64,000 nucleotides of DNA from an uncultured bacterium (GTDB taxonomy: Bacteria > Omnitrophota > Omnitrophia > Omnitrophales > Abzuiibacteriaceae): assembly GCA_964387845.1 (NCBI GenBank), contig CAYLXA010000003.1, forward strand, positions 64,001-128,000. Direction: 5' to 3'. This document shows, in pieces, positions 22,701 to 59,245 of this stretch; the first letter of the stretch is position 1, and every line of letters begins with the position of its first letter. The position numbers were made by a program, and so were the translations under genes. The notes under the pieces were generated by a model. It had not been told where the DNA came from and ran no database searches. It worked only from the letters and a program-made list of their open reading frames with translations.

Positions 22701-25700
22701 TTTTTTCGTTTAGAATCAAAACTGCGTCTTTTAAAAGAACTAAAATATTTAGCAGCGTTTTCTCCTGAAGATCGGATGTGTCTTCAGAACTCATCTTGGT
22801 GCCGATATCCAAAATCAACTTTTGATAAGCATATTGGAGCGCAACATCAGGATACACATTTTTTGTATTGATTAACCAGCTGGTTTCTTCTTGAAATCGA
22901 TCAAGAAGCTCTTGAAATGAATACTTATCCGGCATGTTGTCGACAGGCGCTTGATCAACTAATTGGTCAGCCGCTGATTGAAATGCGCTTGCTATTTGAT
23001 CGTTGTATTCTTTGATTTTCTCTTGATAGAGTTCCTCGGACATTCCTTCCATTTTAAAAGACTCGCCATAGCTCAAAAAACTCATCATCCGGTAGAGCGT
23101 GGAAAGGATTTCCCTATTTCGAGCCTTGATCTGTTTTTCTTCATCCGTGCCCTCGGTTCCCTTGAGAGATTCGATGGCATTATGGATATCTTTAACAATT
23201 CTAGGAATTGGCTGGCCGGCTTTTTCAAGCTGTGTATAAGCATTGGGGTGCGCATACAACTTAAACGCATCGAAATATGAGATTTTTTTGTCCTTCAAAG
23301 ATTCCATCACTAATTTTATTGAATCGGTGTTATATTTAAAAAATTGCCATGTGATTTCTAATGCTTTTGCATCACGCAGACGCCCTTTTTGCTTTAGATC
23401 CCGAATTCTAATTTGAAAATCGAAATTAAAAATATCTAGAATCGCTTTAAAATGTTGCACATCACGTTCGGCAGCTTCAGGGCTAAGAATGGCAGGCTGT
23501 TTAAATTTGCTGCTAAATTTTTCCAAACTCTCTCCTAGCGCTCTGCTCGACCACAAATAGTAAATCTGAAAACCAACGCTATTCACTTTTGATTTAATTT
23601 CTTCTTCAAGAAGATGATCCGCTCTTTTCCCTTCGCTTTCTATTTTTTCCAGAACAGAATCTTTCAATTCGTCTAAAACTTGCAGTAAATTTTTGTTCGA
23701 TTGGTCTTCTTCCAAAATCATCCTGTCTATCTTTTCTGAAAATTTTACCTTTTCGATTCTTATCTTTTCTTGAACATCTGGTTCTTCATCCAAATTCGAT
23801 CTCAACGAATAAGCAGCTGTAAAAAAGTCGTCTGCCTGGAAAAGCATCGTGGTGCCTCGAAATACACGCCGGGCCTGATTTTTATTGCCCTGCATCAGAA
23901 CGGTTCGAAGTTCTGATCTTTTTTCCGATTCGCCTTCGGCATCACTTGTTTTGCTTTTGGATTTTTTCTCTTCGATCATTTCTTCAATGAGATCCAGCAG
24001 ATCTGTTAGTTGAGGGGGCAAAACTCCTTCGATTGCGTCCATGCTCAGCCCTGTATTCGCAATCACTCTTGCGATTATTTCGAGAGCGCTGTTTCCTGTA
24101 GAAACCGGATTTGCATTTATAATTGCCGCTATTTCCTCGTCATTTACTGATTCTTCTTTCGGGTCAAAATAAGAAGCGATTCCGGATTGCGCAGCAGGTT
24201 TTTCGGATTTGTTTTCTGCTGCTTGAGGTTGGGTTTGCGGCTCTGCCGGCTGTGCTGATTTGGCTTTTTCAATGACGAGTTGAAAAAAAGCGTCTCTCTG
24301 GTTTTGCTTTATCGATTTGAATTGATCATTTATAAACTTAGCGAAGGTCGATCCTGCTCTTAAGGGAAATTTATTCACGCTCGGATTCCCTTGTTTATAT
24401 TCGCTTGCCAATGCGCCACTCTTGTTAGCGTCTGTGATAATTGTCCGCTCAATTTCTGTTAGGTTGCCTTCCTTCCCCTCGGCAAGTTTCACAACGCCGG
24501 AAAAAAATGCTTCCACGTTTGCCTGCTGCGTCATATCTGCCGGAACTCCCGCCGCCCAATCGATCAATTTTTGGATTTGCGAATTGACAGCCCGCAATTC
24601 AGAACGATCGTTCTTCTCAGATTGTTGAGAAGGTTGTATAGAAACTGCATACGAGGCCAATTTCGAATCATCAAAATATGCCCTATCAATAAACTTTTCA
24701 AAAGTGGCTTGCCAACCGTCAGGGTTGTAGTAATACTCGGGCAACGATTTTCCTGATTTTGCTTGCACTTCGGATGCAAACCTGAGCAAAGCTTGTTGGA
24801 TAGGAACAAGAAACCGGTTATCAAAATTCTCCGCCGCTGTCCCCGGATTATTTTTGTTGATCAACGCACGCGTATATCCCAATTGCAGCGTCATTAGTTT
24901 CAAAATGTATCTTGATTTTTTCCAGTTCTTATCATTTGCGGCATCACGAAATCTCGATGAATCATAATGAAGGCGCGTTAATGTTGCCGCAAGTGATTCC
25001 GGATATTGATCCCTGGAGACATAGCGGACTTTAAGCCAATCAGATGCAACATCATCTAAAAATACCGAAACAACTCTGTGGGGAGTTTGTTCAATAACAA
25101 CCGACTCTGGATCCTTGAAACCAACCACCCCATTCTCATAAGCAAGATGGCCGACTTCGTGATACACATGATAATCGCTTACCCATTCAAATAACCGTGC
25201 CCTGTCTTCCTTATTTCCAATCTCACCGTGGTGGATAATTTGATGCTGGAGCATTGCCATTCTGAGTGAAATTCGGAGTCTGCGATAAGTTTCGTCATAA
25301 ATTAACGAAAATCCTGTATTGTCAGCCATAGATTCCGAATCTTTCATTTCAGCCGAAAAATTGATAGAGGGTGTCTCTAAAAATTTCTTCAACTCTGCCG
25401 GTAACTTTTCATAACTCTCAGAGGTTCGGCTTATCATCAAAAACGAATCCAAAATCTCTTCCATACTTAAATTGAGCTTCTTGAGTTCGCGATAAATCAT
25501 GATTAGCATAGAAAAAATATTTTGGCTTAATTTGTCAGGAAATTTACTTGTTGAAGATGGGATATAAAGGAATGATGATTGACCGCCTCGATAGGCCGAA
25601 ATAATAACATCAATTGGCCTTGCAAAAAGCCATCTTGAAAAGTAAATAAGCATCACTTGTGTAAGTTTTTTGATTTGAGACAGGTTGGGAAATTCTGGTT

Positions 25701-40369: not shown

Positions 40370-40573
40370 CTATCCGCCGCGTTCTTCAAGCCACGCCATT
40401 TGGATGGCTTCCAGGATCTTTTCGTTGGAGTTTTTGGGATCATCTGAAAAATCGGCAAGCTCGGTGATCCATTTGTGCAAATCGGTAAAACGAACGGTTA
40501 GAGGGTCAATCTCCGGAAATTTCTCTGCCAGCTGGATGCCGATCTCTTCCGTGTCGGTCCATTTAAGTTTCAT
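40370..40573 (-). CDS. iscX: Fe-S assembly protein IscX
   Basis: 67 aa, [36 protein letters not shown]...[16 protein letters not shown] is near-collinear with IscX/YfhJ. Confidence 0.8.
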
Positions 40574-40938
40574 CAGTGCGACCCCGAAATTTGGTTGATT
40601 GTATATTTCGGAATTTCGACGATAATTTCACCGCCCTTAACGACCGACTGGCATGCAAGACGCGAAGACAGCGTGGCACCGGATGCTTTATCAACCAAAT
40701 CCGCTTCACGGTCTTCCATTTCGGTCAAATTCTCCATGCCTTTTTTGATAATGATGTGGCATGTGGTACAGGCACAATTGCCGCCGCAGGCGTGTTCTAA
40801 ATCGATGCCGTTTGCAAGCGCGATAGACAAAATGGAACCCGGCTCGCCATCGTGGCCTGTTACGGGGGTGTTGGAATCTACCTCGACGGTTTTATTGAGA
40901 GGAAGAAAAGTAACTTTTGCTTTAGCCATTTTGGTCAA
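40573..40938 (-). CDS. fdx: [2Fe-2S] ferredoxin of the ISC system
   Basis: [11 protein letters not shown]...C adrenodoxin-type cysteine motif; ATGA overlap with iscX. Confidence 0.85.
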
Positions 40939-42742
40939 TCCGTTTTCCGACGACCGACTTTTTCAATACGTCATTCATCACAATTTCGGCCAAATGTTCG
41001 GTAGTTTTATTTAAAATTTCGGTCGCGTCTTTGATTTTTTTCCGGTCATTGCCGGAAAGCTCTGTTTTTAAGACCTGAAGTGCATCTTCGATCTTTTTCT
41101 TTTCTTCTTTTGAAACTGCACTACCAGCCTGCACGAGTCCCTTTTCCGTCGCGCGGATAATCAAATCTGCTTCATTCTTAGCATCGATTAAAAGATGCGC
41201 GTCGAAATCTTCTTTGGCTTTCGAGTAAGATTCCTGAACGATATTCTGAATTTCCTGTTCTGTCAATCCATAGGTGGGTTTCACCTCGATCGACTGCTCC
41301 TTACCGTTTCGTTGGTCTTTTGCCTTCACCTGCAAAATTCCGTTTTCATCAATTAAAAACGTAACCTCAATGCGCGGCATACCGGCCTGCATCGGCTCAA
41401 TTCCCTTTAATTGAAACCGCGCAAGACTCCGGCAGTCCTTCGCCAGTTCGCGCTCGCCCTGAACAATGTGAATATCGACCGAAGTTTGGCCGTCTACGAA
41501 AGTTGTGAACACATCGTTGGCACGTGCCGGGATCGTTGAATTCCGCTCGATGATCCTTGCTACCGCACCGCCGTAAGTTTCGATTCCAAGACTGAGCGGG
41601 GTAACATCCAGCAGCAGCATGTCTTTCAGCTGCCCCGTTAAAATATGAGCTTGCACGGCAGCGCCCAAAGCCACAACTTCATCGGGATTCAAGTCGCAGT
41701 GCGGCTCTTTTTCGAATATTCCCTTTACGATTTCTCTGACGATCGGCATGCGCGTCGAGCCGCCGACTAAAATCACTTCATCAATGTCGCTTGCGGAAAG
41801 TTCGGCGTCTTTGAGCGCCTGCTTGCACGGCTTGACGGTCCGTTCCACAATCGGCCTGATGATGGTTTCGAATTCTTTGCGTGTGAGAAAATACTCAAAG
41901 CTCATTTCGGAATTTTTGATTTGAATCGTGGCTTTTTCTTTTATCGAAAGCTCTATTTTTGCCTTCTCGGCCGTTTCGACAATAAGTTGTGTTAACTCCG
42001 GGTTGCCGGCAGCTTTGCTTCCGATTTTTTCGATCAGCATTTGCGCAAGCTTCCAATCCACATCGTCACCGCCCAAATGCGTATCGCCTGCGGTGGCAAG
42101 GACTTCGAAAATTCCGTCATGCAGGTTTAAAATCGAAATATCAAACGTGCCACCGCCCAAATCGTAAACCGCGATTTTGCCGCGGTCTTTTTTATGAAGC
42201 CCGTAAGCAAGGCTCGCCGCGGTCGGTTCGTTAATGATCCGCATCACGTGAAACCCGGCAATTTTCCCCGCGTCTTTTGTGGCTTGCCGCTCTGAATCAT
42301 TAAAATAGGCCGGAACCGTAATGACGGCAGATTTAACGGGTGATTTGAAGAAGGTTTCTGCGCGGGTTTTCAAATTTTTAAGCACAAGCGCCGAAATTTC
42401 CGGAGGTGTTAAAAGCTGATCACCCAATTTGATTCGAATAATTTTTTCATCCGAAAGATCGACGGGATACGGAATGTATTCGGATTTCAAATCGACTTCG
42501 CGCGAGCCTTTTCCCATGAGACGTTTAACGCTCGAAATGGTTAAAGCCGGCTTCGAAACACGCTGATGTTTGGCTTCGTTACCAACCAAAATTTCGCCTT
42601 TCGCGCCGATCGAAACAACGGACGGCAGCAGGATGGTTTTCTTTGAATCCGGAATCGCTTTCGGTTTTCCGGATTCATCCACATAAGCTGCAACGCTAAA
42701 TGTTGTTCCTAAATCAATGCCGATGACTGGTTCCATAATCAA
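40922..42742 (-). CDS. hscA: Fe-S chaperone HscA (Hsp70 family)
   Basis: [29 protein letters not shown] Hsp70 motifs in an isc-operon context. Confidence 0.9.
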
Positions 42743-43311
42743 CTTTCAAGCGCGGTTTCAACCGTTTGGCGCGCCGTTTCTAAATATTTTCGCTCGTGAA
42801 TCAATTTTTGAATTTCTAACGCAAGATTTTCATGCTTCGACCCGCCGGAGTCCCATTCGCGGAATATATCCTGAAGTCTTTCTTCAACGTTTTTGATTTT
42901 ACCCTGCACGGTTTTAAGCGACTCGTTCAGTCCTTGCTCAATCGCTTTCAATTCCTCGGCAGAAACGTTGGATTGCTTTGCTTGCTTCAAGTTATCCACA
43001 TGCTCTTGAATTTCAAACATCTCCGCCAAAAGCTCGGGGGGTGTTTTTTGATCCGTATTCTTTTTGGAAAAACCCTCAATATCCATCATATAACCCGCAC
43101 GAAGCCAAGGATCTTTGATGGTTTCGTAGGCTTTGTTAAGGACGGATGACTGTTCAAGCGCGTTTTGCTTTTCCTGCGGCGTTGCCTGCTGATGATAATC
43201 GGGGTGAAGTTTTTTGGACAGTTCGTAGAATTTTTTTTCGAGCGATTTGGTATCGACCGTTAATTTTTTAGGAAAGCCGAAAAAAGTGAAATAATCCAAA
43301 GTTTTATCCAT
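42739..43311 (-). CDS. hscB: co-chaperone HscB
   Basis: J-domain with HPD (KKLHPDYH) plus a C-terminal helical domain. Confidence 0.8.
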
Positions 43312-43338
43312 GCGAATATCATAGAAAATTTGGGCAGA

Positions 43339-43686
43339 TTAAACCGAAAAGGACTCGCCGCAGCCGCAGCTTTTGGAGGCGTTTGGATTGACGAATTTAA
43401 ATCCGCGGCCTTCAAGGCCGTCTACGAAATCAAGATGAGTGCCGTTCAAATATAAATAGCTCTTAGGATCGACAAACACTTTGACGCCGTTGAAATCAAA
43501 TTCGTTATCGCCCTGCTGTTTCTTATCGAATGCCATATTGTAGGACAAGCCCGAACAGCCGCCGCCCTTGACGCCGAGTCTTAAGCCTAATTCGGCGTTA
43601 TTTTGCTTTTCGAGCAGCCGTTTTACTTCTGCTTGGGCAGATTCGGTGAGAACAACACTGCCCGATGTTTTTTCTGTTTTATCCAT
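43339..43686 (-). CDS. iscA: Fe-S carrier IscA (HesB family)
   Basis: GGGCSGLSY...GCGESF cysteine motifs; start set at MDKTEK. Confidence 0.85.
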   Translation of the reverse strand: MDKTEKTSGSVVLTESAQAEVKRLLEKQNNAELGLRLGVKGGGCSGLSYNMAFDKKQQGDNEFDFNGVKVFVDPKSYLYLNGTHLDFVDGLEGRGFKFVNPNASKSCGCGESFSV

Positions 43687-44089
43687 GAGACACCTTACTT
43701 TCCGCCTGCAAATCTGATTTCTTTTTATAGTCTGAAATGGCTGCTTTGATCGCATCTTCGGCCAAAACCGAACAATGGATCTTAATCGGAGGAAGCGACA
43801 ATTCCTTCACGATATCCGTATTCTTAATCTTGAGCGCATCCTCTACGGTTTTGCCCTTGATCCATTCCGTTGCAAGACTTGATGATGCGATCGCGGAACC
43901 GCAGCCGAACGTTTTGAACTTCGCATCTTCTATAATTCCCTTTTCGTTGACGCGGATCTGCAGTTTCATCACGTCACCGCACTCCGGAGCGCCAACCACA
44001 CCAGTGCCGACATCCTTCGACGTTTTTTCGAAACTCCCGACATTTCGCGGGTTATTGTAGTGATCTAAAACTTTGTCTGAATAAGCCAT
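43679..44089 (-). CDS. iscU: Fe-S scaffold IscU
   Basis: GAPECGDVM, FKTFGCGSAIASSS and HCSVLA motifs; SD gggaga before the MAYSDK start. Confidence 0.9.
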   Translation of the reverse strand: MAYSDKVLDHYNNPRNVGSFEKTSKDVGTGVVGAPECGDVMKLQIRVNEKGIIEDAKFKTFGCGSAIASSSLATEWIKGKTVEDALKIKNTDIVKELSLPPIKIHCSVLAEDAIKAAISDYKKKSDLQAESKVSHG

Positions 44090-44100
44090 TTTATTCTCCC

Positions 44101-45327
44101 TTAATGCGACCCGGTCCACTGGACCGATTTAATGTCTACGCCTTCTTTAAACATTTCATACAGCGGTGATAATTCGCGAAGCCGCGAAACCACTTTCACC
44201 ACTTTTTCAATCGTATAATCGACTTCTTCCTGAGTATTAAACCGGCCCAAGCCGAAACGAATCGATGTGTGCGCCAAATCTTCGCCGACACCGAGCGCTT
44301 TCAATACATAAGAAGGCTCGAGACTTGCTGATGTGCAAGCAGAGCCCGATGAAACCGCGATTTCTTCGTTGATGCCCATCAAGAGCGATTCGCCTTCCAC
44401 AAATGCGAAACTGATATTCAGATTTCCGGGAAGCCTTTTCTCTAAACTTCCGTTTAAATAAACTTCTTCCAACTTTGCGTTGATTCCGTTCCGCAAACGC
44501 TCACGCAATTCGAGTAATCTCTTCGATTCTTGCGGCATATCCTGAACCGCAATTTCGATCGCTTTTCCGAATCCGACAATTCCGGGAACATTCAAAGTGC
44601 CTGAGCGCATGCCTCGCTCATGGCCACCGCCGTGAATAATGGGCGACAATCTCACGCGCGGGTTCTTCTTTCTGACGTAAAGCGCCGCGATGCCTTTTGG
44701 GCCGTACATTTTATGCGCCGATACCGACAATAAATCAACGCCCATCGCTTGAACATCCACCGGGATTTTCCCGACGGCTTGCACGGCATCACAGTGAAAC
44801 AGAATTCCTTTTTCCTTCGCGATTTTCCCGATTTCTGCGACCGGCTGCACAACGCCGATTTCATTATTAGCATGCATAATCGAAATCAAAATTGTCTTGT
44901 CGGTAATCGCCGCTTTTAATTCATCCAACCGAATCAAACCGTCTTTTCCGACCGGCAAATAAGTAACCTGAATGCCTTGGCTTTCCAAATATTTACAGGT
45001 ATCAAGAACGCATTTATGTTCGATCACGCTCGTAATAATATGATTGCCGCGCTCCTTGTACATATCCGCGACACCCTTGATTGCAAGGTTGTTGGATTCT
45101 GTAGCGCCGCTCGTGAAAATAATTTCTTTCGCATCGATCGCGTTAATTGTTTTTGCGATTTTCTCGCGCGCAGCTTCAACAGCAGCCTCAGCGTGCCAGC
45201 CGAACGGATGATTGCGGCTTGCCGCATTTCCGAATTCATTTTTCAAATATGGGAGCATGGCTTCGAGCACACGCGGATCGACCGGCGTTGTTGCTTGATT
45301 GTCCATATAAATCGGTAATTTCACCAT
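44101..45327 (-). CDS. iscS: cysteine desulfurase IscS
   Basis: Class V aminotransferase; SGSACTS active-site Cys loop, SAHK PLP lysine. Confidence 0.9.
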
Positions 45328-45329
45328 GT

Positions 45330-45851
45330 TTACCCCTTCAAAGATTTTTTGGCCGATTTCACTGCGGTTTTGCTGCGGCCGTTATTTTCAACATCCAATA
45401 AATTAAAAGTTGATAAATTCCATTGCTTTTGCAAGTCATCCTCACCTTCGGCGAGCGACGCGAGCGTTACGCTGCTGCAAAAATCATCGATCAATTGCTT
45501 CAGCTTCCGCCAAAACGGCCGGACGCTACAGCTTGAGAAATGCTGGCAAACAATCCGTTCGCGAAGCCTCGGCGAACAAAACACTTCAAATATGTCGCCT
45601 TCTACCGATTCAATAACTTGCTTCAATGTGATTTGTTCGGGTTCTTTTGCAAGCACAAACCCGCCGTAAATTCCCTTAACACTTTTGATAATGCCGCCCT
45701 TGCGGAGCTTCACGAAAATCTGTTCTACATAATCCTTGGGCAGATGTTCGGCATCGGACACTTCCGAAACCGAAATCGGGTTGCCGTTTGCATGATCGCA
45801 AAGGTACTTTAAACTGACTAATGCGTATTCGCTTTTGGTGGTTAGCTTCAT
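45330..45851 (-). CDS. iscR: Rrf2-family regulator IscR
   Basis: Rrf2 HTH ([12 protein letters not shown]) and C-x-x-C/C spacing; SD aagga before MKLTT. Confidence 0.75.
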
Positions 45852-45981
45852 AGATTTATCCTTAAACCCGCAAAACCCACTAAAATTGTACAATATATGA
45901 CTGTTTTAATCAAGATTTATTAAAAAAGTCTCAAAATTTATCTTAAGTTGTTTAATTATAATAATTTATAACTATTACGAA

Positions 45982-47598: not shown

Positions 47599-47627
47599 TT
47601 GACAAAAAAGCTTTGCTTCATTATATT
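47599..47627 (+). promoter_or_regulatory. sigma70 promoter for the S-box leader
   Basis: TTGACA - 17 nt - TATATT immediately upstream of the riboswitch. Confidence 0.55.
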
Positions 47628-47635
47628 ATCCGCTC

Positions 47636-47806
47636 GTATATCTTCTTATTGCGAGCGGTTGTCTCCATGAAATGCGTGATTTGGAGGCATCTTCGCCCAA
47701 AAGGCGGAGAAATTGAGGGACAGGCCCTATGAAACCGCGGCAACCAATTCGCTCAAAAGCAGGCGAATCCGGTGCCAACTCCTGAGAGCTGATGATTACT
47801 AGAAGC
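47636..47806 (+). ncRNA. SAM-I (S-box) riboswitch
   Basis: cttcttat... ggcggag...gagggacaggccctatgaaaccgcggcaacc...ggtgccaactcctgagagc...agaag matches the SAM-I conserved core (GGNGGAGGGACUGGCCCGAUGAAACCCGGCAACC...GGUGCCAAUUCCUGCA). Confidence 0.75.
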
Positions 47807-47841
47807 CCGGCTCTAAAATAAGGGGAGGAAAAGTTTTGATT

Positions 47842-47880
47842 AAACCTCTTCTTGAATGCTCAAGAAAGAGGTTTTTTTAT
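47842..47880 (+). terminator. riboswitch expression-platform intrinsic terminator
   Basis: aaacctcttcttg-aatgct-caagaaagaggttt followed by tttttatttt, then RBS taggggg and the ATG at 47899. Confidence 0.7.
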
Positions 47881-47898
47881 TTTTAGGGGGTTTTACAA

Positions 47899-49128
47899 AT
47901 GAGTTTTGTCAGAGGCCTTAAGTGCCGCGAATGCGGAAAAATTTACCCGAAGCAGGCGCTCTATGTTTGCGAATTTTGCTTTGGTTCTTTGGAAGTTGAC
48001 TACGATTACGACGCGATTAAAAAAGCCGTCACACGTGAAAAAATCGAAAAAGGCCCCAGGAGCCTTTGGCGCTACAAAGCGCTTCTTCCCATAGACAACG
48101 AACCGACGGTCGGATTTCATTCGGGATTTACGCCGCTCGTGAAAGCCAACCAACTTGCCAAAACTTTGGGTGTTTCCGAGCTGTATATTAAAGACGATAC
48201 CGTTTGCCATCCGACATTTTCATTCAAAGACCGCGTCGTATCCGTTGCGCTCTCGAAAGCCCGCGAGCTCGGTTTCGATACGGTTTCCTGCGCTTCGACC
48301 GGAAACTTGGCGAACTCGGTTGCGGCCCACGCCGCCGCCGCAGGATTGAAGCGCTACATCTTTATCCCTCACGATTTGGAATACGCCAAAGTGCTCGGCA
48401 GTTTGATTTATCAGCCCAATTTAATTGCCGTGAAAGGCAATTATGACGACGTGAACCGGCTTTGTTCTGAAATCGCAGGCAAATACAAATGGGCTTTTGT
48501 GAACGTCAATATTCGCCCTTACTACGCGGAAGGTTCCAAAACTTTCGGATATGAAATAGCCGAACAGCTCGGCTGGAAAACGCCGAAGCATTTAGTCTGC
48601 CCGGCCGCAAGCGGTTCGCTGCTCACCAAAATCTGGAAAGCGTTTAAAGAATTTCACAAACTGGGATTCATCGAAAAACCGGAAACGAAGCTTTATTGCG
48701 CGCAGCCCGAAGGCTGTTCGCCGATTTCGGCTGCGATTAAAAATAAATCGGATGCGATCAAGCCTGTCAAGCCGAACACGATCGCCAAGTCGCTTGCGAT
48801 CGGAAATCCGGCGGATGGTTATTATGCCAAAGATGCCGTTTTGGAATCAGGCGGCGCTTCGATGATCGCCACAGACGATGAAATCCGGGAAGCGATTAAA
48901 CTGCTGGCGCAAACCGAAGGCATTTTCACGGAAACCGCGGGCGGCGTTACGGTTGCGTGCGCGAAAAAATTGATCGAACAGGGCGTCATTCCAAAAAATG
49001 AATCCATTGTGATTTCAATCACCGGAAACGGGCTCAAAACACAAGGCGCCATCCGGGATTCTGTCGGAGAGCCATCAATGATCGAGCCGAACTTAAAATC
49101 ATTTGAATCGATTCTGAACAAAAAATAA
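47899..49128 (+). CDS. threonine-synthase-family PLP enzyme with N-terminal zinc ribbon (ThrC, or MetM-like homocysteine synthase)
   Basis: CRECG...CEFCFGSL ribbon; SFKDR PLP-lysine motif; fold-type II PLP core. Confidence 0.8.
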   Translation: MSFVRGLKCRECGKIYPKQALYVCEFCFGSLEVDYDYDAIKKAVTREKIEKGPRSLWRYKALLPIDNEPTVGFHSGFTPLVKANQLAKTLGVSELYIKDDTVCHPTFSFKDRVVSVALSKARELGFDTVSCASTGNLANSVAAHAAAAGLKRYIFIPHDLEYAKVLGSLIYQPNLIAVKGNYDDVNRLCSEIAGKYKWAFVNVNIRPYYAEGSKTFGYEIAEQLGWKTPKHLVCPAASGSLLTKIWKAFKEFHKLGFIEKPETKLYCAQPEGCSPISAAIKNKSDAIKPVKPNTIAKSLAIGNPADGYYAKDAVLESGGASMIATDDEIREAIKLLAQTEGIFTETAGGVTVACAKKLIEQGVIPKNESIVISITGNGLKTQGAIRDSVGEPSMIEPNLKSFESILNKK

Positions 49129-49165
49129 CGTATACTATCCAGACTTCACAAGGAGACAATAAATC

Positions 49166-49447
49166 ATGGCTGTCAAAGTAAGAATCCCGACACCTTTGCA
49201 AAAACTCACCAAAGATCAAGAAGAAGTAGAGTTAAAAGCAGCTTCTATTAAAGAAATGATTAACAGCCTTGAAAAACAATTCCCCGGAATCAAAGACCGG
49301 CTTTGTGATGAATCCGGCAACATCCGCCGCTTCGTCAACATTTTCCTCAACGAAGAAGACATTCGCTTCTTGAATAAAGAAGAAACTGTTTTGAAAGACG
49401 GCGATGAAGTTTCGATTGTCCCCGCAATTGCCGGAGGCGCAAGGTAA
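49166..49447 (+). CDS. MoaD/ThiS-family sulfur-carrier protein with GG-AR C-terminus
   Basis: 93 aa beta-grasp-like; ends ...SIVPAIAGGAR, i.e. Gly-Gly plus two extra residues. Confidence 0.6.
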   Translation: MAVKVRIPTPLQKLTKDQEEVELKAASIKEMINSLEKQFPGIKDRLCDESGNIRRFVNIFLNEEDIRFLNKEETVLKDGDEVSIVPAIAGGAR

Positions 49448-50430
49448 TGACGGTCACCACAAGCTTGATCGGTGACTTACGGGACCGCGTGCTGTTGGGC
49501 GGTGAAATTACGCGCGAAGAAGCGTGTTCATTAATTGAAATTCAGGATGAACAGCTTTTAAACGAACTCGTCAACGCCGCTCACGAAATTACGGTTTTCT
49601 TCAATTCCGAGCAGGCTCACCTTTGCTCGCTCATCAACGCAAAAAGCTATCTTTGCAGTGAAGACTGCGGATTTTGTTCCCAATCGACTCATTTTAAAAC
49701 CGAAGCCTCGCGCTACGAATTGCTCTCGGCAGATGAGATCGTCAAATCCGCGAAAAATGTAGAAGCACAAGGGATCGAAAATTTCTGTATCGTGACAAGC
49801 GGCGGTTCTTTAAATGAAAAGGAGTTTGAGCATATCATCGAAGCGGTTAAACGCTTGAAAGCCGAAACCAAACTCAACATTGACGGCTCGCTTGGTTTTC
49901 TGACGCCTGAACGCGTCGAAAAATTGAAAGAAGCCGGTATGCGGCGCTTCAACGATAATTTACAGTCCTCACGCGAATTTTATAACAAGATCGTTTCCAC
50001 ACATTCCTATGATAAACGTCTTGAGACCTTGGATTTCCTGCGCCAGGGTGATATGGATTTGTGTTCGGGCGGTATTTTCGGCATGGGCGAAACACGCGAA
50101 GACCGCGTGAATATGGCATTTGAACTAAAACGTTTTACGCCCGAATGCGTTCCGGTTAATATTTTAAATCCCCGGCCCGGGACACCGCTTGAGAATGCGC
50201 CCAAAATTGACCCGATGGAAGTTGTCAAAGCCATCGCGGTTTACCGCTTCATCCTTCCTAAATCCAATATTAAACTCGCCGGCGGCCGCGAAATTAATTT
50301 GGGTGAATTTCAAAAACTTGCTTTAAAAGCCGGTGCCAATGGCCTTGTCTCGGGCGGTTACCTCACAACAGGCGGAAACTCCTTCGACACCGACAAGGCC
50401 ATGCTCAAAGAAGCCGGTTACGACGTTTAG
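49447..50430 (+). CDS. bioB: biotin synthase
   Basis: CSEDCGFCSQS radical-SAM triad; YNHNL-like, CSGGI.G.GET and NILNPRPGTPLE blocks collinear with E. coli BioB; TAATG start/stop overlap with the carrier gene. Confidence 0.85.
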   Translation: MTVTTSLIGDLRDRVLLGGEITREEACSLIEIQDEQLLNELVNAAHEITVFFNSEQAHLCSLINAKSYLCSEDCGFCSQSTHFKTEASRYELLSADEIVKSAKNVEAQGIENFCIVTSGGSLNEKEFEHIIEAVKRLKAETKLNIDGSLGFLTPERVEKLKEAGMRRFNDNLQSSREFYNKIVSTHSYDKRLETLDFLRQGDMDLCSGGIFGMGETREDRVNMAFELKRFTPECVPVNILNPRPGTPLENAPKIDPMEVVKAIAVYRFILPKSNIKLAGGREINLGEFQKLALKAGANGLVSGGYLTTGGNSFDTDKAMLKEAGYDV

Positions 50431-50441
50431 CTTTCCTTTCG

Positions 50442-51170
50442 ATGGAAGTTTCTCTCGCTGGAAAAACCATTTTAATCACCGGCGGAACAAGCGCGCTGGG
50501 ATCCGAATTCGTTAAACGAGCGCTCAAAGAAAATGCCAAAATTTTCTTCACCTACTACACGAATGAAACCAAAGCCCGCGAACTTTCGGATTTGGGCGCA
50601 ATTGGTTTTAAAATCGACCTGTCAAAAATTGCTGAAATCAAATCTCTGGCTGCACAACTAAAAGCCCATACAAACGCGCTTGATGGCTTAATCAACAATG
50701 CTGCGTCCGTTAAAGACAGGACGGTTCAAAATATGTCGGATGAAGAATGGGATGAAGTGTTAAACACCGATCTAAAAGCAGCTGCTTTTATGGTCAAAGA
50801 AATGCTCCGATTTTTATTTAAAAAGAAACCGAGCAAAATTTTAAATGTGATCAGCCGCGTCGGTGTTCAAGGCGCTTTCGGCCAGGCCAATTACGCGGCG
50901 GCAAAAGGCGGACTGATTTTGCTCACGAAAAGCCTGGCCAAAGAACTCGGGAAAAAGAAAATTCTGATCAATGCTCTCAATCCCGGATTCATGAAATCCA
51001 AAATGACAGACGTGCTGCCTGCTGAGGTTATTGAGCGCAACCGACATGAAAGCGTCTTGGATGAAATCTCGAATCCTGAAGAAGCCGCGGATTTTATGAT
51101 TTATTTAATGTCGGACAAAATGACGCTTGTGAGCGGCCAAATTTTTAACATCGAGTCGAGATTGCGATGA
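50442..51170 (+). CDS. SDR-family 3-oxoacyl-ACP reductase-like
   Basis: ITGGTSALG Rossmann motif, NYAAAKGG (YxxxK). Confidence 0.75.
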   Translation: MEVSLAGKTILITGGTSALGSEFVKRALKENAKIFFTYYTNETKARELSDLGAIGFKIDLSKIAEIKSLAAQLKAHTNALDGLINNAASVKDRTVQNMSDEEWDEVLNTDLKAAAFMVKEMLRFLFKKKPSKILNVISRVGVQGAFGQANYAAAKGGLILLTKSLAKELGKKKILINALNPGFMKSKMTDVLPAEVIERNRHESVLDEISNPEEAADFMIYLMSDKMTLVSGQIFNIESRLR

Positions 51171-52363
51171 ATCGTGTTGTGGTTACCGGCATCGGCTGCG
51201 TAGCGCCCATCGGAAATAATCAAAAAGAGTTCGCCAAAAACCTGAGCGAAGGAAAATCGGGAGCTGGGCCAATTTCAAAATTTGACACGTCAAACTTCCC
51301 CGTTAAAAAAGCGTTTGAAGTCCGTTCGTTCTCACCTGTGCCCGCTTCTAAAGCGCTCGATCCTTTCATTCAATACGGCCTCACAGCCGCTGAAGAAGCG
51401 ATTCGGGACAGCAAGCTCGATATTCCATCGATGGACCCTTATCGAGTTGGAATCGCGGTTAGTTCCAGCAAAGGCGGCATGACAACGCTCGAAAAATTCC
51501 GTGATCGATTCTTGAAACGGCCAAGCGCGCTTCTCGGAGCCCGGATTTACGCCAATACCGTTCCGAATATTTTGTCGCAGTGGATCGCGAGGCGTTGGGA
51601 ACTCAAAGGCCCCGCAAAACCTGCCGTGGCAGCCTGCGCAACCGGAACTTACGCAATTATTGAGGGCATCCGGATGATCGAGGATGATGAAACGGATGTC
51701 TGCATCGCCGGCGCAAGCGATGCGTCGATCACCAAACTAATGCTTGCCGGATATCACCAAATGGGCGTTCTTTCACCGAACGGTGTTTCTCCGTTTGATA
51801 AAACGCGCGGCGGATTTTTGGTCGGTGAAGGCGCGGGTGTTGTTATTTTAGAAAAGGAAAACCACGCGAAAGCCAGACATGCACAAATTTACGGGCGGAT
51901 TTTGAGCCATACATACGGAAATGAATGCCGGCACTTAATTTCGTTTCCGGTTGAAAGCGACGGCCTTTCATCGACGCTTATGCGGTCTATCAAAAGTGCT
52001 AATATTACGCCTTGTGACATTGATTCGCTTCAACTCCACGGAACCGCAACAGTTTCCGGTGATTTATATGAAACCGCCCAAATTAAAAAAGCATTTGGCA
52101 AGGATGCTTACAAGATTTCGATGAGCGCCATCAAATCCATGATCGGACACACGGCCGGTGCGGCAGGCGCTTTTTCATTTATCGCAAACTTGCTTTCGCT
52201 GCGCGACCAAATCATTCACCCGACGATTAATTTGAATTCGCCGGATGCCGAATGCGATTTAGACTATACGCCTTGTTATTCTAAAAAGAAAAAAATTAAA
52301 GTCGCCGGTTCGATCAGCATGGGTTTCGGCGGCCACATTGGGGCTATTTTGGTGGGAAAATGA
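51167..52363 (+). CDS. beta-ketoacyl-ACP synthase I/II-like
   Basis: Active-site Cys (AACATG), HGTAT and IGHTAGAAGA His motifs. Confidence 0.8.
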   Translation: MNRVVVTGIGCVAPIGNNQKEFAKNLSEGKSGAGPISKFDTSNFPVKKAFEVRSFSPVPASKALDPFIQYGLTAAEEAIRDSKLDIPSMDPYRVGIAVSSSKGGMTTLEKFRDRFLKRPSALLGARIYANTVPNILSQWIARRWELKGPAKPAVAACATGTYAIIEGIRMIEDDETDVCIAGASDASITKLMLAGYHQMGVLSPNGVSPFDKTRGGFLVGEGAGVVILEKENHAKARHAQIYGRILSHTYGNECRHLISFPVESDGLSSTLMRSIKSANITPCDIDSLQLHGTATVSGDLYETAQIKKAFGKDAYKISMSAIKSMIGHTAGAAGAFSFIANLLSLRDQIIHPTINLNSPDAECDLDYTPCYSKKKKIKVAGSISMGFGGHIGAILVGK

Positions 52364-53508
52364 AAACCGATCAGGAATTTTCCAGTATTTCAGAAGAACT
52401 TCAATTCTTAAAAGATAGTCATCTGTTCCGAAAATTAAGAACCCTGGAAAGCATTGACTCGACTCATGTGTTATTAAATGGGAAAAAGGTTTCTTTGTTT
52501 TGTCATAACGACTACCTGGGCCTAAGCAAACACCCTGATGTTGCAGAAGCCTTCTCACAAGGTGTCCGTGATTTTGGCGCCGGCTCGGGCGCTGCGCGGC
52601 TCATCACCGGCAATACAACCGTATTTGAAAAATTAGAAGAGCGTCTCGCCCAGTTTAAGAAAAAAGAACGCGCACTTCTGTTTTCGACCGGTTATTTGGC
52701 TAATCTCGGCATCATCTCGGCCTTTTGCGAGAAAGAGGATGTTGTGATTGTCGATAAGCTTAATCACGCTTCAATCATTGATGCCTGCAAGCTTTCGGGC
52801 GCAACCATTCGTGTTTATCCGCACAAAGATTTGGATTATTTGGAGAAAATTCTCAAGCAATCTGATCGATTCCGAAGAAAATTAATCGTTACGGATTCTG
52901 TTTTCAGCATGGACGGCGACTTGGCCCCGCTGCCTGAAATTGTAAAGCTTAAGAACCGCTACGGCGCTTATTTAATGATTGATGAAGCGCATGGAACCGG
53001 CGTTTTTGGAAAGTCAGGACGCGGAGCAGCGGAATATTTGAACGTAGAGGATGAAATCGACATTTCGATGGGAACTTTGTCAAAAGCGTTTGGGACGCAC
53101 GGCGGATTTGTGGCGGGGAGTTCTGAGCTCATCGAATTTTTAATCAACCGGAGCCGTAGTTTTATATTCTCAACCGCCCTTCCGCCCGCGGTTTGCGCGG
53201 CAAGCTTGAAATCGTTGGAATTAATCGAACAAAAGCCGGAGCTAAGAGATCGTTTGTGGAAAAATATTAAAAGCACGGTAGACAACCTAAAACTTTCCGG
53301 CACTTCACCGATTATCCCTGTCATGATTGGCGATGAGCAAAAAGCGATGAATTTATCCGAAAAACTACTCGAAAACAGCATTTTGATCCCGGCAGTTCGG
53401 TATCCGACAGTCCCTAAAAAATCCGCGCGTCTTCGCTTAACTGTTTCGGCTGCTCACAGCCAAAGCGACCTGGAAACCCTGATTTCTACACTTAAAAAAC
53501 ACCTTTAA
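52360..53508 (+). CDS. bioF: 8-amino-7-oxononanoate synthase (alpha-oxoamine synthase family)
   Basis: Class II aminotransferase; GTLSKAFG PLP lysine; in the bioB cluster. Confidence 0.7.
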   Translation: MKTDQEFSSISEELQFLKDSHLFRKLRTLESIDSTHVLLNGKKVSLFCHNDYLGLSKHPDVAEAFSQGVRDFGAGSGAARLITGNTTVFEKLEERLAQFKKKERALLFSTGYLANLGIISAFCEKEDVVIVDKLNHASIIDACKLSGATIRVYPHKDLDYLEKILKQSDRFRRKLIVTDSVFSMDGDLAPLPEIVKLKNRYGAYLMIDEAHGTGVFGKSGRGAAEYLNVEDEIDISMGTLSKAFGTHGGFVAGSSELIEFLINRSRSFIFSTALPPAVCAASLKSLELIEQKPELRDRLWKNIKSTVDNLKLSGTSPIIPVMIGDEQKAMNLSEKLLENSILIPAVRYPTVPKKSARLRLTVSAAHSQSDLETLISTLKKHL

Positions 53509-55870: not shown

Positions 55871-57049
55871 TTACGACGTCACTTTCGACCGCATAGCTTC
55901 GATTAAAATTTCAGCAACTTCGGGCCGCGTGATTTCAATCGGCGGAATTTCACCGTTCCGAAGCATTTCGCGAAGCTTTGTGCCCGAAACGTTAAAAGCA
56001 TCTGCATTCGGCGGCGCGGTTTTAAAACTTACCATTCCGCCTGTCTTTTTATCAAAAAATGTGTGTTCAAATTTGAAAAGCTCGATTCCGATATCCTTCG
56101 GATCAAACTTATCGAAAATAAGCTGCGCATCATAGGAACCATAATAAGACTTTCCGTCCGGTTTGCTTGCGCCTGCGTGGTCACGGCCGACGATAAAATG
56201 CGTGCAGCCGTAGTTTTTACGCACAATCGCGTGCCACACGGCTTCGCGCGGCCCCGCGTAACGCATCGCGGCAGGAAATACGGCTAGTATTGAGCGGTCT
56301 TTCGGATAATATTTGTCGAGAAGCACTTGATAACATTTCATACGCACATCGGCCGGAACATCGTCGCCTTTTGTCTGCCCGACCAGCGGATGAATTAAGA
56401 GGCCGTCTACACATTCAAGCGCCACTTTTGTTAAATATTCATGCGCGCGATGAATCGGATTACGCGTTTGGAAAGCAACAATAGTGCGCCAATTGCGTTT
56501 CTTGAATTCTTCACGGGTTTCGGCGGGGCTTAAACGATATTCCGTAAAATCTTTGTGTTTCGGCTGATTAAATAACGAAACCTTGCCCCCGACAAGCCAG
56601 TTGCCCATGAGCCCGATTTGGACATTGCCGGGATGTGCAGCATCATCCGTTCCGTAGAGCAGCATTGAATGTTTCTGCTTGTCGTGTTTATAAATACCTT
56701 CGATTTCTAAAATCGCAAGCGGGTGGCCTGAAGCATCTTTCAGCGCAACTTCCTTTTGGTTTGCCACTTTTGATTTTTCATCATCCGTCAGAGACTTGAC
56801 GACCGGAATTGTCCAAGGAAGACCGCTTGTTAAAACTAAATTATCCAGACAGGAATTAAAATCATCTTCACTCATGAAGCCATCCAACGGACTCATGGCG
56901 CCGGATGCGATCATTTCAAGATCACAGAGTTCGCGCTCAGATAGCGCAAGCGCAACTAGCTTGCTTGCTTTGCTTTCCGCTTCGTCGCGTTTCTTGCCTT
57001 TTAATTCACGGTTAATTAAGGTTCCGCCGTGTGCTGCAATGCTACTCAT
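55871..57049 (-). CDS. sat: sulfate adenylyltransferase (homo-oligomeric Sat type)
   Basis: QTRNPIHRAHE and HFIVGRDHAG motifs. Confidence 0.85.
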   Translation of the reverse strand: MSSIAAHGGTLINRELKGKKRDEAESKASKLVALALSERELCDLEMIASGAMSPLDGFMSEDDFNSCLDNLVLTSGLPWTIPVVKSLTDDEKSKVANQKEVALKDASGHPLAILEIEGIYKHDKQKHSMLLYGTDDAAHPGNVQIGLMGNWLVGGKVSLFNQPKHKDFTEYRLSPAETREEFKKRNWRTIVAFQTRNPIHRAHEYLTKVALECVDGLLIHPLVGQTKGDDVPADVRMKCYQVLLDKYYPKDRSILAVFPAAMRYAGPREAVWHAIVRKNYGCTHFIVGRDHAGASKPDGKSYYGSYDAQLIFDKFDPKDIGIELFKFEHTFFDKKTGGMVSFKTAPPNADAFNVSGTKLREMLRNGEIPPIEITRPEVAEILIEAMRSKVTS

Positions 57050-57819
57050 ATATCACTTCCCCCGTCTGTTGATTTGTCTGCTTTTTCTGTTTTTGCCGAA
57101 GGTTTCGGTTTCATGAATGTATGAAGGCCGCATTCGGTTTTATCTTTGCCTGCCCAGCGGCCCGAACGTTCGTCATCGCCCGGCTGAACTGGTTTCGTGC
57201 ACGGCCAGCAGCCGATGCTTAAATATCCTTTTTCAAAAAGCGCGTGAATCGGCAGTTTGTGCTCTTTGATGTACCACCAAATGTCGCCTGAGGTGACATT
57301 GGCAAATGGGTTGATTTTATAAAGACCGCCTTCATATTCTTCAACAATCTGGATTTCTTTGCGTGTCTTGGATTGTGAGCGGCGGATCCCGGAAATCCAG
57401 GCATCGAGGCCCTTCAAAGCTTCCTGCATAGGCTCTACTTTGTTAATTTGGCAGCAAAGATCCGGATTTTTTTCGTAGGGTTTCCCGTCATAATCCTTCA
57501 CCAATTGTTCCCGGCGCTTGGGGTCCGCTCTTAAGTCAACCACGTTGGTCAATTTGAGCCTGTCTGTAACCAATTTTTTGAAATCAAGCGTTTCCTGAAA
57601 ATGAAAACCGGTCTCAAGAAAGAAGATTTTAATCACGGGATCAATTTTGGAAACCATGTCGAGAAGGACGATGCTTTCGGTCTGAAATGAGGAGCTCACG
57701 GCAATCTTTGGGCGAAATTCTTCAATCGCCCAGCGCAGAATCACCTGCGGCTGTTCTTTTTCAAACTTTTCGTTTAATGCCGCTAAATCCAGCTTTTTAC
57801 TCACCAGCATGCCTTTCAA
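57046..57819 (-). CDS. cysH: adenylylsulfate/phosphoadenylylsulfate reductase
   Basis: PAPS-reductase fold, ECGLH C-terminal motif, plus a CC...CxxC cluster (SIGCWPCT) typical of APS reductases. Confidence 0.8.
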   Translation of the reverse strand: MKGMLVSKKLDLAALNEKFEKEQPQVILRWAIEEFRPKIAVSSSFQTESIVLLDMVSKIDPVIKIFFLETGFHFQETLDFKKLVTDRLKLTNVVDLRADPKRREQLVKDYDGKPYEKNPDLCCQINKVEPMQEALKGLDAWISGIRRSQSKTRKEIQIVEEYEGGLYKINPFANVTSGDIWWYIKEHKLPIHALFEKGYLSIGCWPCTKPVQPGDDERSGRWAGKDKTECGLHTFMKPKPSAKTEKADKSTDGGSDI

Positions 57820-58697
57820 GATTCCTTCGTGTTTAACCGCAAACGCAAACGATCGATCGTGTCATAATACAAACAAGCGCCTTCGCCCATCCAGCCCAAA
57901 TCAACATTGGGCCGGTTATCGCCGTGAAAATCGCTGCCGCCGGTTGTAATGAGACTGAATCGATCCGCTACTTTCTTATAATAAGAAGCTTCTTCCCTGG
58001 ACTGGCAGCTCGAAAATACTTCCATGCCGTCTAGGCCTTGATCGACAAGCTTTGAAATTTCCGTTTCAAATTCCTTTTCGCCTTTTAATTTCAGCTGCTT
58101 CGGATGCGCCAAAGAAGCCACACCGCCTGCCGCATGAATCATCCGGATCGCGGTTTCGCTTGTGATGTTGCGCTTATCCACATAAGCCGGGGCGCCTTTT
58201 GCCAAAAAGCGGTTGAACGCATCCTGCGAATCTTGCGCGTAGCCTTTTTTGACCAGCACGCGCGCAAAATGCGGCCGGCCGATTTGATCACCGCCCGACT
58301 CTGCGGCAACTTCATCCAGCGTGATTTTAACGCCAAGCTTGCCCAATTTTTCAATGATCTGCGGATTGCGCTTTGAGCGCGCATCCTGAACTAATTTCAA
58401 ACCACTCAACAACTCTTGATTCGCCGTGTTGATGAAATAGCCGAGAATATGCATCGTACCCGGCGGAAAAATGACGCTGATCTCAACGCCGGCAATTACT
58501 TCAACGCCCAGCTTTGCGCCGGCGTCTTTCGCTTCGCGCACGCCGCTCACCGTATCATGATCGGTAAGCGCGATGCAATCTACCCGGCGCGACTTTGCAC
58601 GCGCAACCAGCTGTTCGGGCGTTAAGGTGCCGTCTGAATGCGTGGTATGCATATGCAAATCCACGCGCTTCAGAAATTTTTCTTCGGAAGAAATCAC
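57816..58697 (-). CDS. PHP-family phosphoesterase, probable 3',5'-bisphosphate nucleotidase (pAp phosphatase)
   Basis: [12 protein letters not shown]...ALTDHDT PHP motifs; embedded in the sulfate-activation operon with 4-nt overlaps. Confidence 0.55.
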
Positions 58698-59245
58698 TTT
58701 GCGGCTGCCAATTCGTCCTGTGTCACAAACCCAAGCTCTTCTAACTTCTGGAGAACTCTTTCGGCGGATTGTTCCGGCGTTTCTTTGTGAGTTTCACAAA
58801 CCACTTCGGCACTCAGCGGCTCTTCGTAAGGATCGTCAACACCTGTGAAACCTTTTATTTCTCCGGCCATGGCTTTTTTATAAAGCCCTTTGGTATCGCG
58901 CTCTGCGCAAGTCTCAAGCGGGCATTTCGCGTAAACCTCGATAAAATTTCCGATCAAAGAACGGTTATAATCGCGCACTTCGCGGTACGGCGAAATCGCG
59001 GCCGACAAAACAATGACGTCGTTGCGCGTGAGCAAATCGCAAACAAAACCGATGCGCTTGATATTGGTATCGCGGTCTTCTTTTGAAAACCCGAGCCCTT
59101 TGCTAAGATTGGTACGGACAACATCGCCGTCCAAAATTTCCACTTTACGGCCTGCTTTTTTGAGCCGTTTCTCAACAATTCGAGCGATGGTTGACTTGCC
59201 AGAACCCGATAAACCGGTAAACCATACTGTGACACCTTTTGACAT
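58694..59245 (-). CDS. cysC: adenylylsulfate kinase
   Basis: [17 protein letters not shown]-loop and the APS kinase core. Confidence 0.85.

Follow-up and report, generated by a model that had tools for sequence, protein, structure and literature searches.

In Wolinella succinogenes, homocysteine synthesis depends on a protein thiocarboxylate. In this system (HcyS/HcyD/HcyF/MetY), a JAMM peptidase removes the residues that follow the Gly-Gly of the carrier, the activating enzyme (E1) is of ThiF type, a sulfite reductase is encoded in the cluster, and the sulfur acceptor is MetY, an O-acetylhomoserine sulfhydrylase of fold type I. Another route operates in Streptomyces albulus, where O-phosphohomoserine is converted to homocysteine by MetO, Mec, MoeZ and MetM, according to the GapMind 2026 preprint (bioRxiv 10.1101/2024.10.14.618325, citing Hasebe 2024). 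As the roles are given there, MetO is the carrier, Mec acts in its maturation, MoeZ is the sulfur ligase, and MetM is the homocysteine synthase that depends on MetO thiocarboxylate; the same preprint describes MetM as frequently misannotated as threonine synthase (ThrC). A second source mentions an S-adenosylmethionine (SAM) riboswitch upstream of S. albulus metM, and cyanobacterial homologs that adjoin metO-like genes (PMC12172450). We analyzed a 64-kb stretch of DNA (the window; positions 64,001 to 128,000 of contig CAYLXA010000003.1) from an uncultured bacterium of the Omnitrophota, in which a gene for a ThrC-family enzyme is followed by one for a small sulfur-carrier protein. A first-pass annotation had proposed that this pair makes homocysteine in a carrier-dependent manner, and had pointed to a MetM/MetO route in Streptomyces; that route exists, as the two sources above attest. 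Our analysis suggests that the pair is probably a MetM/MetO-type homocysteine synthase system. The two genes are:

47899–49128, + strand: MetM-like enzyme of the ThrC family, dependent on pyridoxal phosphate (PLP); 409 amino acids (aa), zinc ribbon at residues 9–27, PLP lysine Lys110
49166–49447, + strand: MetO/CysO-like beta-grasp sulfur-carrier protein ending in GG-AR; 93 aa

The enzyme matched the Pfam PALP domain (225.7 bits) and the thrC model TIGR00260 (276.5 bits versus a cut-off of 167.1), while its PRK08197 match (298.5 bits) lay below the cut-off of 303. It is a fold-type II PLP enzyme, with Lys110 placed within HPTFSFKDRV. A zinc ribbon near the N terminus (C9-x2-C12-x11-C24-x2-C27) is kept in homologs. 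Membership in the ThrC family, the SFKDR lysine and the N-terminal zinc ribbon, all claimed from the sequence in the first pass, were thus borne out. Cysteate synthase was also considered as an identity and was ruled out, the TIGR03844 score being 71 bits versus a cut-off of 325. The TIGR00260 model does not tell MetM-like paralogs from ThrC.

The nearest database proteins are 74–95% identical to the enzyme, and every named one is labelled 'threonine synthase'. Nearly all of these named homologs come from Candidatus Omnitrophica metagenome-assembled genomes, with a few from Margulisiibacteriota or unclassified bacteria. For comparison, we used four solved threonine synthases, those of B. subtilis (6cgq), A. 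aeolicus (2zsj), T. thermophilus (1uim) and M. tuberculosis (2d1f). These aligned to residues 53–401 only, with 166–205 bits and 34–38% identity, and the zinc ribbon is missing from all four. P0126, a Micromonosporaceae protein 51–52% identical to the enzyme, came from an exhaustive search of representatives of 50%-identity clusters. Outside the enzyme's own clade, its nearest relatives are an actinobacterial clade of ThrC-like proteins (51–57% identity). Members of this clade are only 34–36% identical to ThrC of M. tuberculosis and B. subtilis, and we therefore regard them as paralogs of canonical ThrC. This range agrees with a 2026 preprint, in which B. subtilis ThrC and MetM are given as 33% identical. 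A genome scan seeded with P0126 yielded 80 actinobacterial loci, none of them from Streptomyces. Directly upstream at the P0126 locus lies a SAM-I riboswitch (77 bits), and one was found immediately upstream in 20 of 20 taxonomically spread loci of the scan (56–87 bits), or 21 of 21 with P0126 included.

Phylogeny had been named as a check in the first pass, and we ran it as a neighbor-joining tree of 84 family members with 100 bootstrap replicates. The enzyme grouped with the actinobacterial ThrC paralogs, apart from the solved ThrCs. The smallest clade containing both the window enzyme and P0126 held 19 of the 84 sequences, made up of the window and actinobacterial types with a few further representatives. 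All 100 bootstrap trees kept P0269, P0231 and P0165, which are zinc-ribbon proteins with canonical-type motifs, out of the clade. Motifs in the active-site region were also compared. Solved ThrCs have NPTGSFKDRG, CASTGNTSAS, SVNPxRxEGQKT, PVGNAGNI and ATAIRIGNPAS, whereas the window enzyme, its orthologs and the actinobacterial clade have xPTxSFKDRV, CASTGNLANS, NVNxRPYYAEGSKT, PxASGSLL and AKSLAIGNPAD. All five motifs examined differ between the window enzyme and the solved ThrCs. These sequence data indicate that the enzyme is a paralog of ThrC, not a canonical ThrC.

The carrier gene begins after a spacer of 37 nt (49129–49165). Its product matched Pfam ThiS (PF02597, 64.2 bits), which places it in the ThiS/MoaD family, and aligned over its full length with the CysO chains 4n6e_B (E = 3.6e-19) and 3dwg_C (E = 1.9e-17). 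CysO proteins of M. tuberculosis and Amycolatopsis are its closest solved structures. On the MoaD equivalog, the carrier scored 22 bits versus a cut-off of 66. A protein 100% identical to it, P0414, is on record. An AlphaFold model built with 36 homologs (mean predicted local distance difference test score 80.6, residues 90–93 disordered) superposed on 3dwg_C and 4n6e_B with template-modeling (TM) scores of 0.88–0.89 and root-mean-square deviations of 1.5–1.8 Å. The size, spacing and GG-AR end of the carrier were as first described, and its beta-grasp fold, set beforehand as one point on which the proposal might fail, held in the model.

The carrier ends in ...PAIAGGAR, and the first-pass annotation had taken the residues beyond Gly-Gly as a sign of proteolytic trimming. 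Among orthologous carriers, no residue follows Gly-Gly in 32 loci and one to six residues follow in 31. The commonest such tail is R (10 loci), with SK, AQ and SR next; AR occurs once. With a bare Gly-Gly end in about half of the orthologous carriers, trimming is a local requirement and does not define the system. The idea thus appears sound for the window organism, whose carrier would require trimming, but not as a conserved feature.

SAM control had likewise been claimed for the pair. The region upstream of the enzyme gene contains the following elements:

47599–47627, + strand: promoter-like TTGACA-17-TATATT, with 11 of 12 consensus matches and a putative promoter function
47641–47826, + strand: SAM-I (S-box) aptamer variant with two extra hairpins (~47661–47712) in the 5′ strand of P2, from Rfam and folding
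47843–47884, + strand: predicted intrinsic terminator (expression platform), read from the sequence and the centroid fold
47885–47890, + strand: ribosome binding site AGGGGG, after the terminator

At its gathering score, Rfam gave no match anywhere in the window. A local match to RF00162 at 47707–47817 reached 38 bits, against a gathering threshold of 44.4, and covered model positions 11–100 only; its E-value was 5e-7 on 601 nt and 5.3e-5 on the whole window. When the leader was aligned to ortholog leaders, both the 5′ strand of P1, UCUUCUUAUU, and the P2a strand CGGU were present, and ~52 nt were seen to be inserted between CGGU and GAGGGAC (P2b). The score is below threshold because of this two-hairpin insertion inside P2. 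In the minimum-free-energy fold of 47641–47828 (−67.7 kcal/mol, z = −3.1), P1–P4 form a four-way junction, with 47641–47650 pairing with 47817–47826 as P1 and two small hairpins coming off the 5′ strand of P2. The same insertion is found in L087, a 93%-identical relative, with compensatory changes in hairpin 2 (UUCGCC/GGCGGA in the window versus UUUGCUG/CAGCAAA in L087). Two hairpins, unrelated in sequence, also occupy the insertion site in L091 and L092, which still score 46.2 bits. The insertion (47661–47712) lies at the position of the P2 kink-turn bulge and may turn the kink-turn into a junction.

Other orthologs scored well above the threshold: RF00162 gave 70.6 bits in L002 and 68–83 bits in L088, L089, L090, L094 and L103, and a SAM-I riboswitch is present in those Omnitrophota-type orthologs whose ThrC-like gene heads its own transcription unit. 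In L002, a TTGACA...TATAGT element aligned at the same place as the promoter-like element of the window. The terminator hairpin, AAACCUCUUCUUG...CAAGAAAGAGGUU, and its U-tract are conserved in the ortholog alignment and end 15 nt upstream of the enzyme ATG. The 3′ strand of P1, AAGGGGAGG, could pair with CCUCUUCUU as an antiterminator. With a complete SAM-I fold, a terminator and full-scoring orthologs, and despite the missing match at the gathering score, the claim of SAM control appears to be correct, the aptamer being a SAM-I insertion variant as judged from its alignment and fold.

Gene order in relatives was surveyed by a metagenome scan, which gave 80 further loci with enzymes of 68–93% identity. 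Enough downstream sequence was available at 68 loci, and at 66 of them the gene immediately after the ThrC-like gene encodes a CysO-type carrier. On the 3′ side, the neighbor of the carrier is ThiF at 48 loci, bioB at 8 and a small NIL-domain gene at 6; on the 5′ side, the neighbor of the ThrC-like gene is TusA at 49, CysK/M-like at 12 and ATP sulfurylase at 8. Around a Margulisiibacteriota homolog (74% identical), the cluster reads Prok-JAB, sulfite-reductase-like, ThiS-PALP fusion, TusA, ThrC-like, thioredoxin, ThiS, ThiF. JAB genes are frequent in related clusters. One of them, used as a search query, proved to be of the Mec type (M67 peptidase), with some homologs annotated as CysO-S-L-cysteine hydrolase; the search gave few close relatives, none of them named Omnitrophota. 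The pair had been expected to need a JAMM protease and an E1 encoded elsewhere. This holds for the window in that no ThiF or JAB family was found among its scanned open reading frames (ORFs) of at least 70 aa, a set that excluded five short ORFs and a giant one of 5503 aa, but in most relatives both functions are linked to the pair.

A free-standing NIL protein of ~80 aa closes the carrier cluster in related loci, as ThiS-ThiF-NIL or ThiS-NIL-bioB, and is not seen in the window. Its gene lies at 11610–11852 in L004 and 11581–11823 in L005, and after ThiF in most ThiF-type loci of L099–L163. Genes beyond NIL are unrelated, so NIL marks the cluster boundary. A fusion of ThiS to CysK/M (...YYMGGG- and then PALP) occurs in L001 (8687–9796), L101, L106, L109, L114–L120, L123 and others; a JAB peptidase beside it could release the carrier.

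Family, fold, clade and motifs, the riboswitch, and the conserved linkage in relatives to carrier, E1, JAMM and sulfur-reduction genes together support the proposal that a ThrC homolog makes homocysteine with a sulfur carrier, and we consider a function of the MetM/MetO type likely. By analogy with S. albulus, the carrier would be trimmed to Gly-Gly by loss of Ala-Arg, presumably via an unlinked peptidase of the JAMM/Mec type. An unlinked E1 of the ThiF/MoeZ type would adenylate it, leading to a C-terminal thiocarboxylate. The ThrC-like enzyme would eliminate phosphate from O-phospho-L-homoserine and add the carrier sulfur at the gamma carbon, a gamma-replacement by thiocarboxylate. Release from the carrier would give homocysteine, the precursor of methionine and SAM. 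Transcription would start at the sigma-70-like promoter, pass through the SAM-I riboswitch and the pair, and continue into bioB, two fatty-acid-synthase-like genes and bioF. With the terminator placed 15 nt ahead of the start codon, the unit should be switched off when SAM is high.

Another possibility is that the carrier is a CysO for a CysM-type cysteine synthase, the ThrC-like enzyme being independent of it or using O-phosphoserine itself. This would fit the CysO structures that are closest to the carrier. It would also fit L003–L005, L095 and L097–L100, where the pair is immediately preceded by a CysK/M-like gene; the protein there lacks a carrier domain, and the two enzymes could therefore share a single carrier. 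Yet the window and L002 have the pair without any CysM-like neighbor. Moreover, in 28 of 45 related clusters the CysK/M-like protein has its own N-terminal fused ThiS domain. Such clusters contain two carriers, which leaves the free-standing one, found after the ThrC-like gene in most relatives, for the ThrC-like enzyme. SAM riboswitches, too, point to control by methionine rather than cysteine. We judge this explanation unlikely.

Still assuming O-phosphohomoserine as the substrate, the ThrC-like enzyme might instead be a sulfhydrylase that acts on free sulfide, with the carrier dispensable or serving some other client. In its favor, sulfate-reduction genes accompany the cluster, and a carrier within 3 kb is lacking at 79 of 81 actinobacterial loci. 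At the actinobacterial loci L085 and L086, the carrier gene adjoins the enzyme gene. (An enzyme-carrier fusion suggested by one ORF of L086 was rejected, this ORF being a wrong frame that the GC-rich DNA leaves free of stops; the carrier gene is separate and adjacent.) Against free sulfide stand the near-universal adjacency of the carrier in the window's own clade and the E1 gene next to it, as well as the use of MetO thiocarboxylate by MetM as given in the GapMind preprint (bioRxiv 10.1101/2024.10.14.618325). On balance, we regard direct use of sulfide as quite improbable.

The pair is followed by biotin genes, and a sulfate-activation cluster lies beyond them:

49447–50430, + strand: bioB, radical-SAM biotin synthase with an unusual set of auxiliary-cluster ligands (TIGR00433, 381 bits)
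50442–51170, + strand: FabG-like, 242 aa, in the same tightly packed transcription unit
51167–52363, + strand: FabF-like, 398 aa, in the same unit
52360–53508, + strand: bioF, in the same unit
55871–59245, − strand: sulfate-activation cluster of ATP sulfurylase, PAPS (3′-phosphoadenosine 5′-phosphosulfate) reductase, a PHP-domain protein that is possibly a PAP (3′-phosphoadenosine 5′-phosphate) phosphatase, and APS (adenosine 5′-phosphosulfate) kinase

The ATG of bioB and the TAA of the carrier gene overlap by 1 nt (TAATG). No strong or convincing internal promoter or terminator was found in the unit before the end of bioF, so the SAM riboswitch presumably governs the biotin genes too. Such control would be physiologically odd. 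The locus had been described as a compact met pathway variant; with biotin genes co-transcribed under the same riboswitch, it is not simply a compact met operon. Omnitrophota-type loci (L002–L005, L087–L098 and L100) share the order sulfate-activation genes, sometimes CysK-like, ThrC-like, carrier, sometimes NIL, bioB, fabG-like, fabF-like, bioF, after which bioA, bioD and mnmA sometimes follow. In the orthologs, the sulfate-activation cluster is directly upstream on the same strand, whereas in the window it is displaced and runs opposite to the met/bio unit. The window showed no sulfite reductase. Nor were homoserine dehydrogenase or homoserine kinase families found in its 64 kb; the neighbors are sulfur and biotin genes.

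Placement of the FabG-like and FabF-like genes between bioB and bioF is conserved across Omnitrophota-type loci. None of bioC, bioH, bioW, bioI and bioZ was seen, and the two genes may represent an undescribed route to the pimeloyl moiety. Elsewhere in the window, a complete isc-type iron-sulfur cluster operon (40573–45893, − strand) encodes Rrf2/IscR, IscS, IscU, an IscA-like protein, an HscB-like protein, HscA and ferredoxin; it lies on the strand opposite to the riboswitch and ends ~2 kb before it. The giant ORF of 5503 aa occupies 10732–27243 (− strand) as a single frame.

We know of no BioB that depends on a sulfur carrier. The position of bioB nonetheless raises the possibility that the carrier also, or instead, delivers sulfur to this enzyme. 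As a second client in the Omnitrophota lineage, BioB might receive from the MetO-like thiocarboxylate the sulfur that it inserts into dethiobiotin, or have that sulfur replenished by it. In the window and 16 Omnitrophota-type loci, bioB always comes directly after the carrier, with or without NIL, and in the window their stop and start codons overlap, which would couple the two genes in translation. The best Protein Data Bank matches of the window BioB are the type II enzymes 8vdw (273 bits) and 8vcw (231 bits), with E. coli 1r30 at 172 bits. By published ligand definitions (PMC10813225), Cys occupies the S43/C52 and C97/S106 positions alike in this enzyme (E. coli/B. obeum numbering), Asp replaces Cys C128/C138, and Lys replaces the conserved Arg260/Arg268. 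This pattern is common to the window and all 16 Omnitrophota-type BioBs aligned. Its auxiliary-cluster ligands match neither type I nor type II (4Fe-5S), though the protein is closest to type II, for which replenishment of the fifth sulfide is called an open question in the same source. Yet the link between carrier and bioB is limited to one lineage, 48 loci have ThiF after the carrier and no bioB near, and the carrier never occurs without the ThrC-like enzyme. Delivery to BioB is thus a long shot. If true, it would mean that one SAM-riboswitch-controlled operon delivers sulfur for both homocysteine and biotin synthesis.

That an ordinary threonine synthase lies by chance beside a MoaD subunit of molybdopterin synthase, as current annotation has it in the names of the enzyme homologs and of some carrier homologs ('molybdopterin synthase sulfur carrier subunit') and as the TIGR00260 score would allow, is scarcely credible given active-site motifs and a clade unlike those of solved ThrCs, a SAM riboswitch upstream, a carrier far below the MoaD cut-off with no MoaE nearby, an adjacency of enzyme and carrier in 66 of 68 loci with ThiF, JAB, TusA and sulfite-reductase-like genes that is not due to chance, and the misannotation of MetM as threonine synthase described as frequent in the GapMind preprint (bioRxiv 10.1101/2024.10.14.618325).

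Several observations weigh against assignment of the pair to the MetM/MetO type. The enzyme passes the TIGR00260 thrC cut-off. In a profile comparison, it scored 259 bits with the actinobacterial-clade profile versus 233 bits with a profile of the four solved ThrCs; the margin is narrow, and we give it little weight because the four-sequence canonical profile is much broader. Orthology to S. albulus MetM is drawn by proxy only, through actinobacterial ThrC paralogs that have SAM riboswitches and include no Streptomyces protein. The window has neither ThiF nor JAB among the ORFs scanned, the riboswitch is missing at many orthologous loci, and in the window its control extends to biotin genes. 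A cyanobacterial (Microcystis) MetM-like homolog is described as mainly a threonine deaminase, with methionine not raised (PMC12172450). Function may thus differ across the MetM clade, whose biochemistry comes from a single characterized member.

The pathway itself is already known: MetM/MetO was published in 2024 and is included in GapMind, and its concept is unchanged by our result. What sets the lineage apart is that E1 and JAMM are unlinked, that the carrier has a GG-AR tail, that the SAM-I riboswitch bears an insertion, and that the unit is joined with a biotin operon. If right, the assignment carries the 2024 route beyond Streptomyces into Omnitrophota, Margulisiibacteriota and further uncultivated lineages, in which a conserved cluster comprises JAMM, CysM with fused ThiS, sulfite-reductase-like, TusA, MetM-like, carrier, E1 and NIL genes. 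It would also correct a systematic misannotation, of the enzymes as 'threonine synthase' and of some carriers as a molybdopterin synthase subunit. This matters for metabolic reconstruction, as methionine synthesis may otherwise be scored missing in such genomes. The motif differences from ThrC offer a practical sequence test for separating MetM-like proteins from ThrC.

Compared with the SAM-I family (RF00162), the window aptamer has the same four-way junction of P1–P4, conserved core and terminator expression platform, and a potential pseudoknot between the P2 loop and J3-4 (CAGG/CCUG); it differs, as do those of L087 and L091/L092, in the two-hairpin insertion in the strand of the P2 kink-turn bulge. 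With canonical threonine synthase, the enzyme shares its fold and PLP lysine motif and probably its substrate, O-phosphohomoserine. Canonical threonine synthase is without the zinc ribbon, and relative to it the window enzyme has STGNT changed to STGNL and PVGNAGN to PAASGSL, in a gene context of sulfur metabolism rather than threonine synthesis. The CysO/CysM/Mec/MoeZ cysteine pathway of M. tuberculosis offers a carrier that is 44% identical to ours and superposable on it, and in relatives of the window the cluster also contains CysM-like genes and JAB genes of the Mec type. The window's partner enzyme, however, belongs to the ThrC family and not to CysM/CysK, and is under SAM-riboswitch control. 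In the W. succinogenes system, the acceptor is MetY, whereas here it would be a fold-type II ThrC paralog, presumably using O-phosphohomoserine. The S. albulus MetM/MetO system (Hasebe 2024) differs in phylum, that of the window being Omnitrophota-like, and the ~51–57% identity given above is to an actinobacterial proxy clade, not to the S. albulus sequence. The GG-AR tail, the riboswitch insertion, the lack of E1 and JAMM genes nearby, and co-transcription with bioB, fabG-like, fabF-like and bioF also set the window apart from it. Common to both are a ThrC-homologous PLP enzyme that is routinely annotated as threonine synthase, a ThiS/MoaD-type carrier, a SAM riboswitch, and a predicted need for an E1 of the ThiF/MoeZ type and a Mec/JAMM peptidase.

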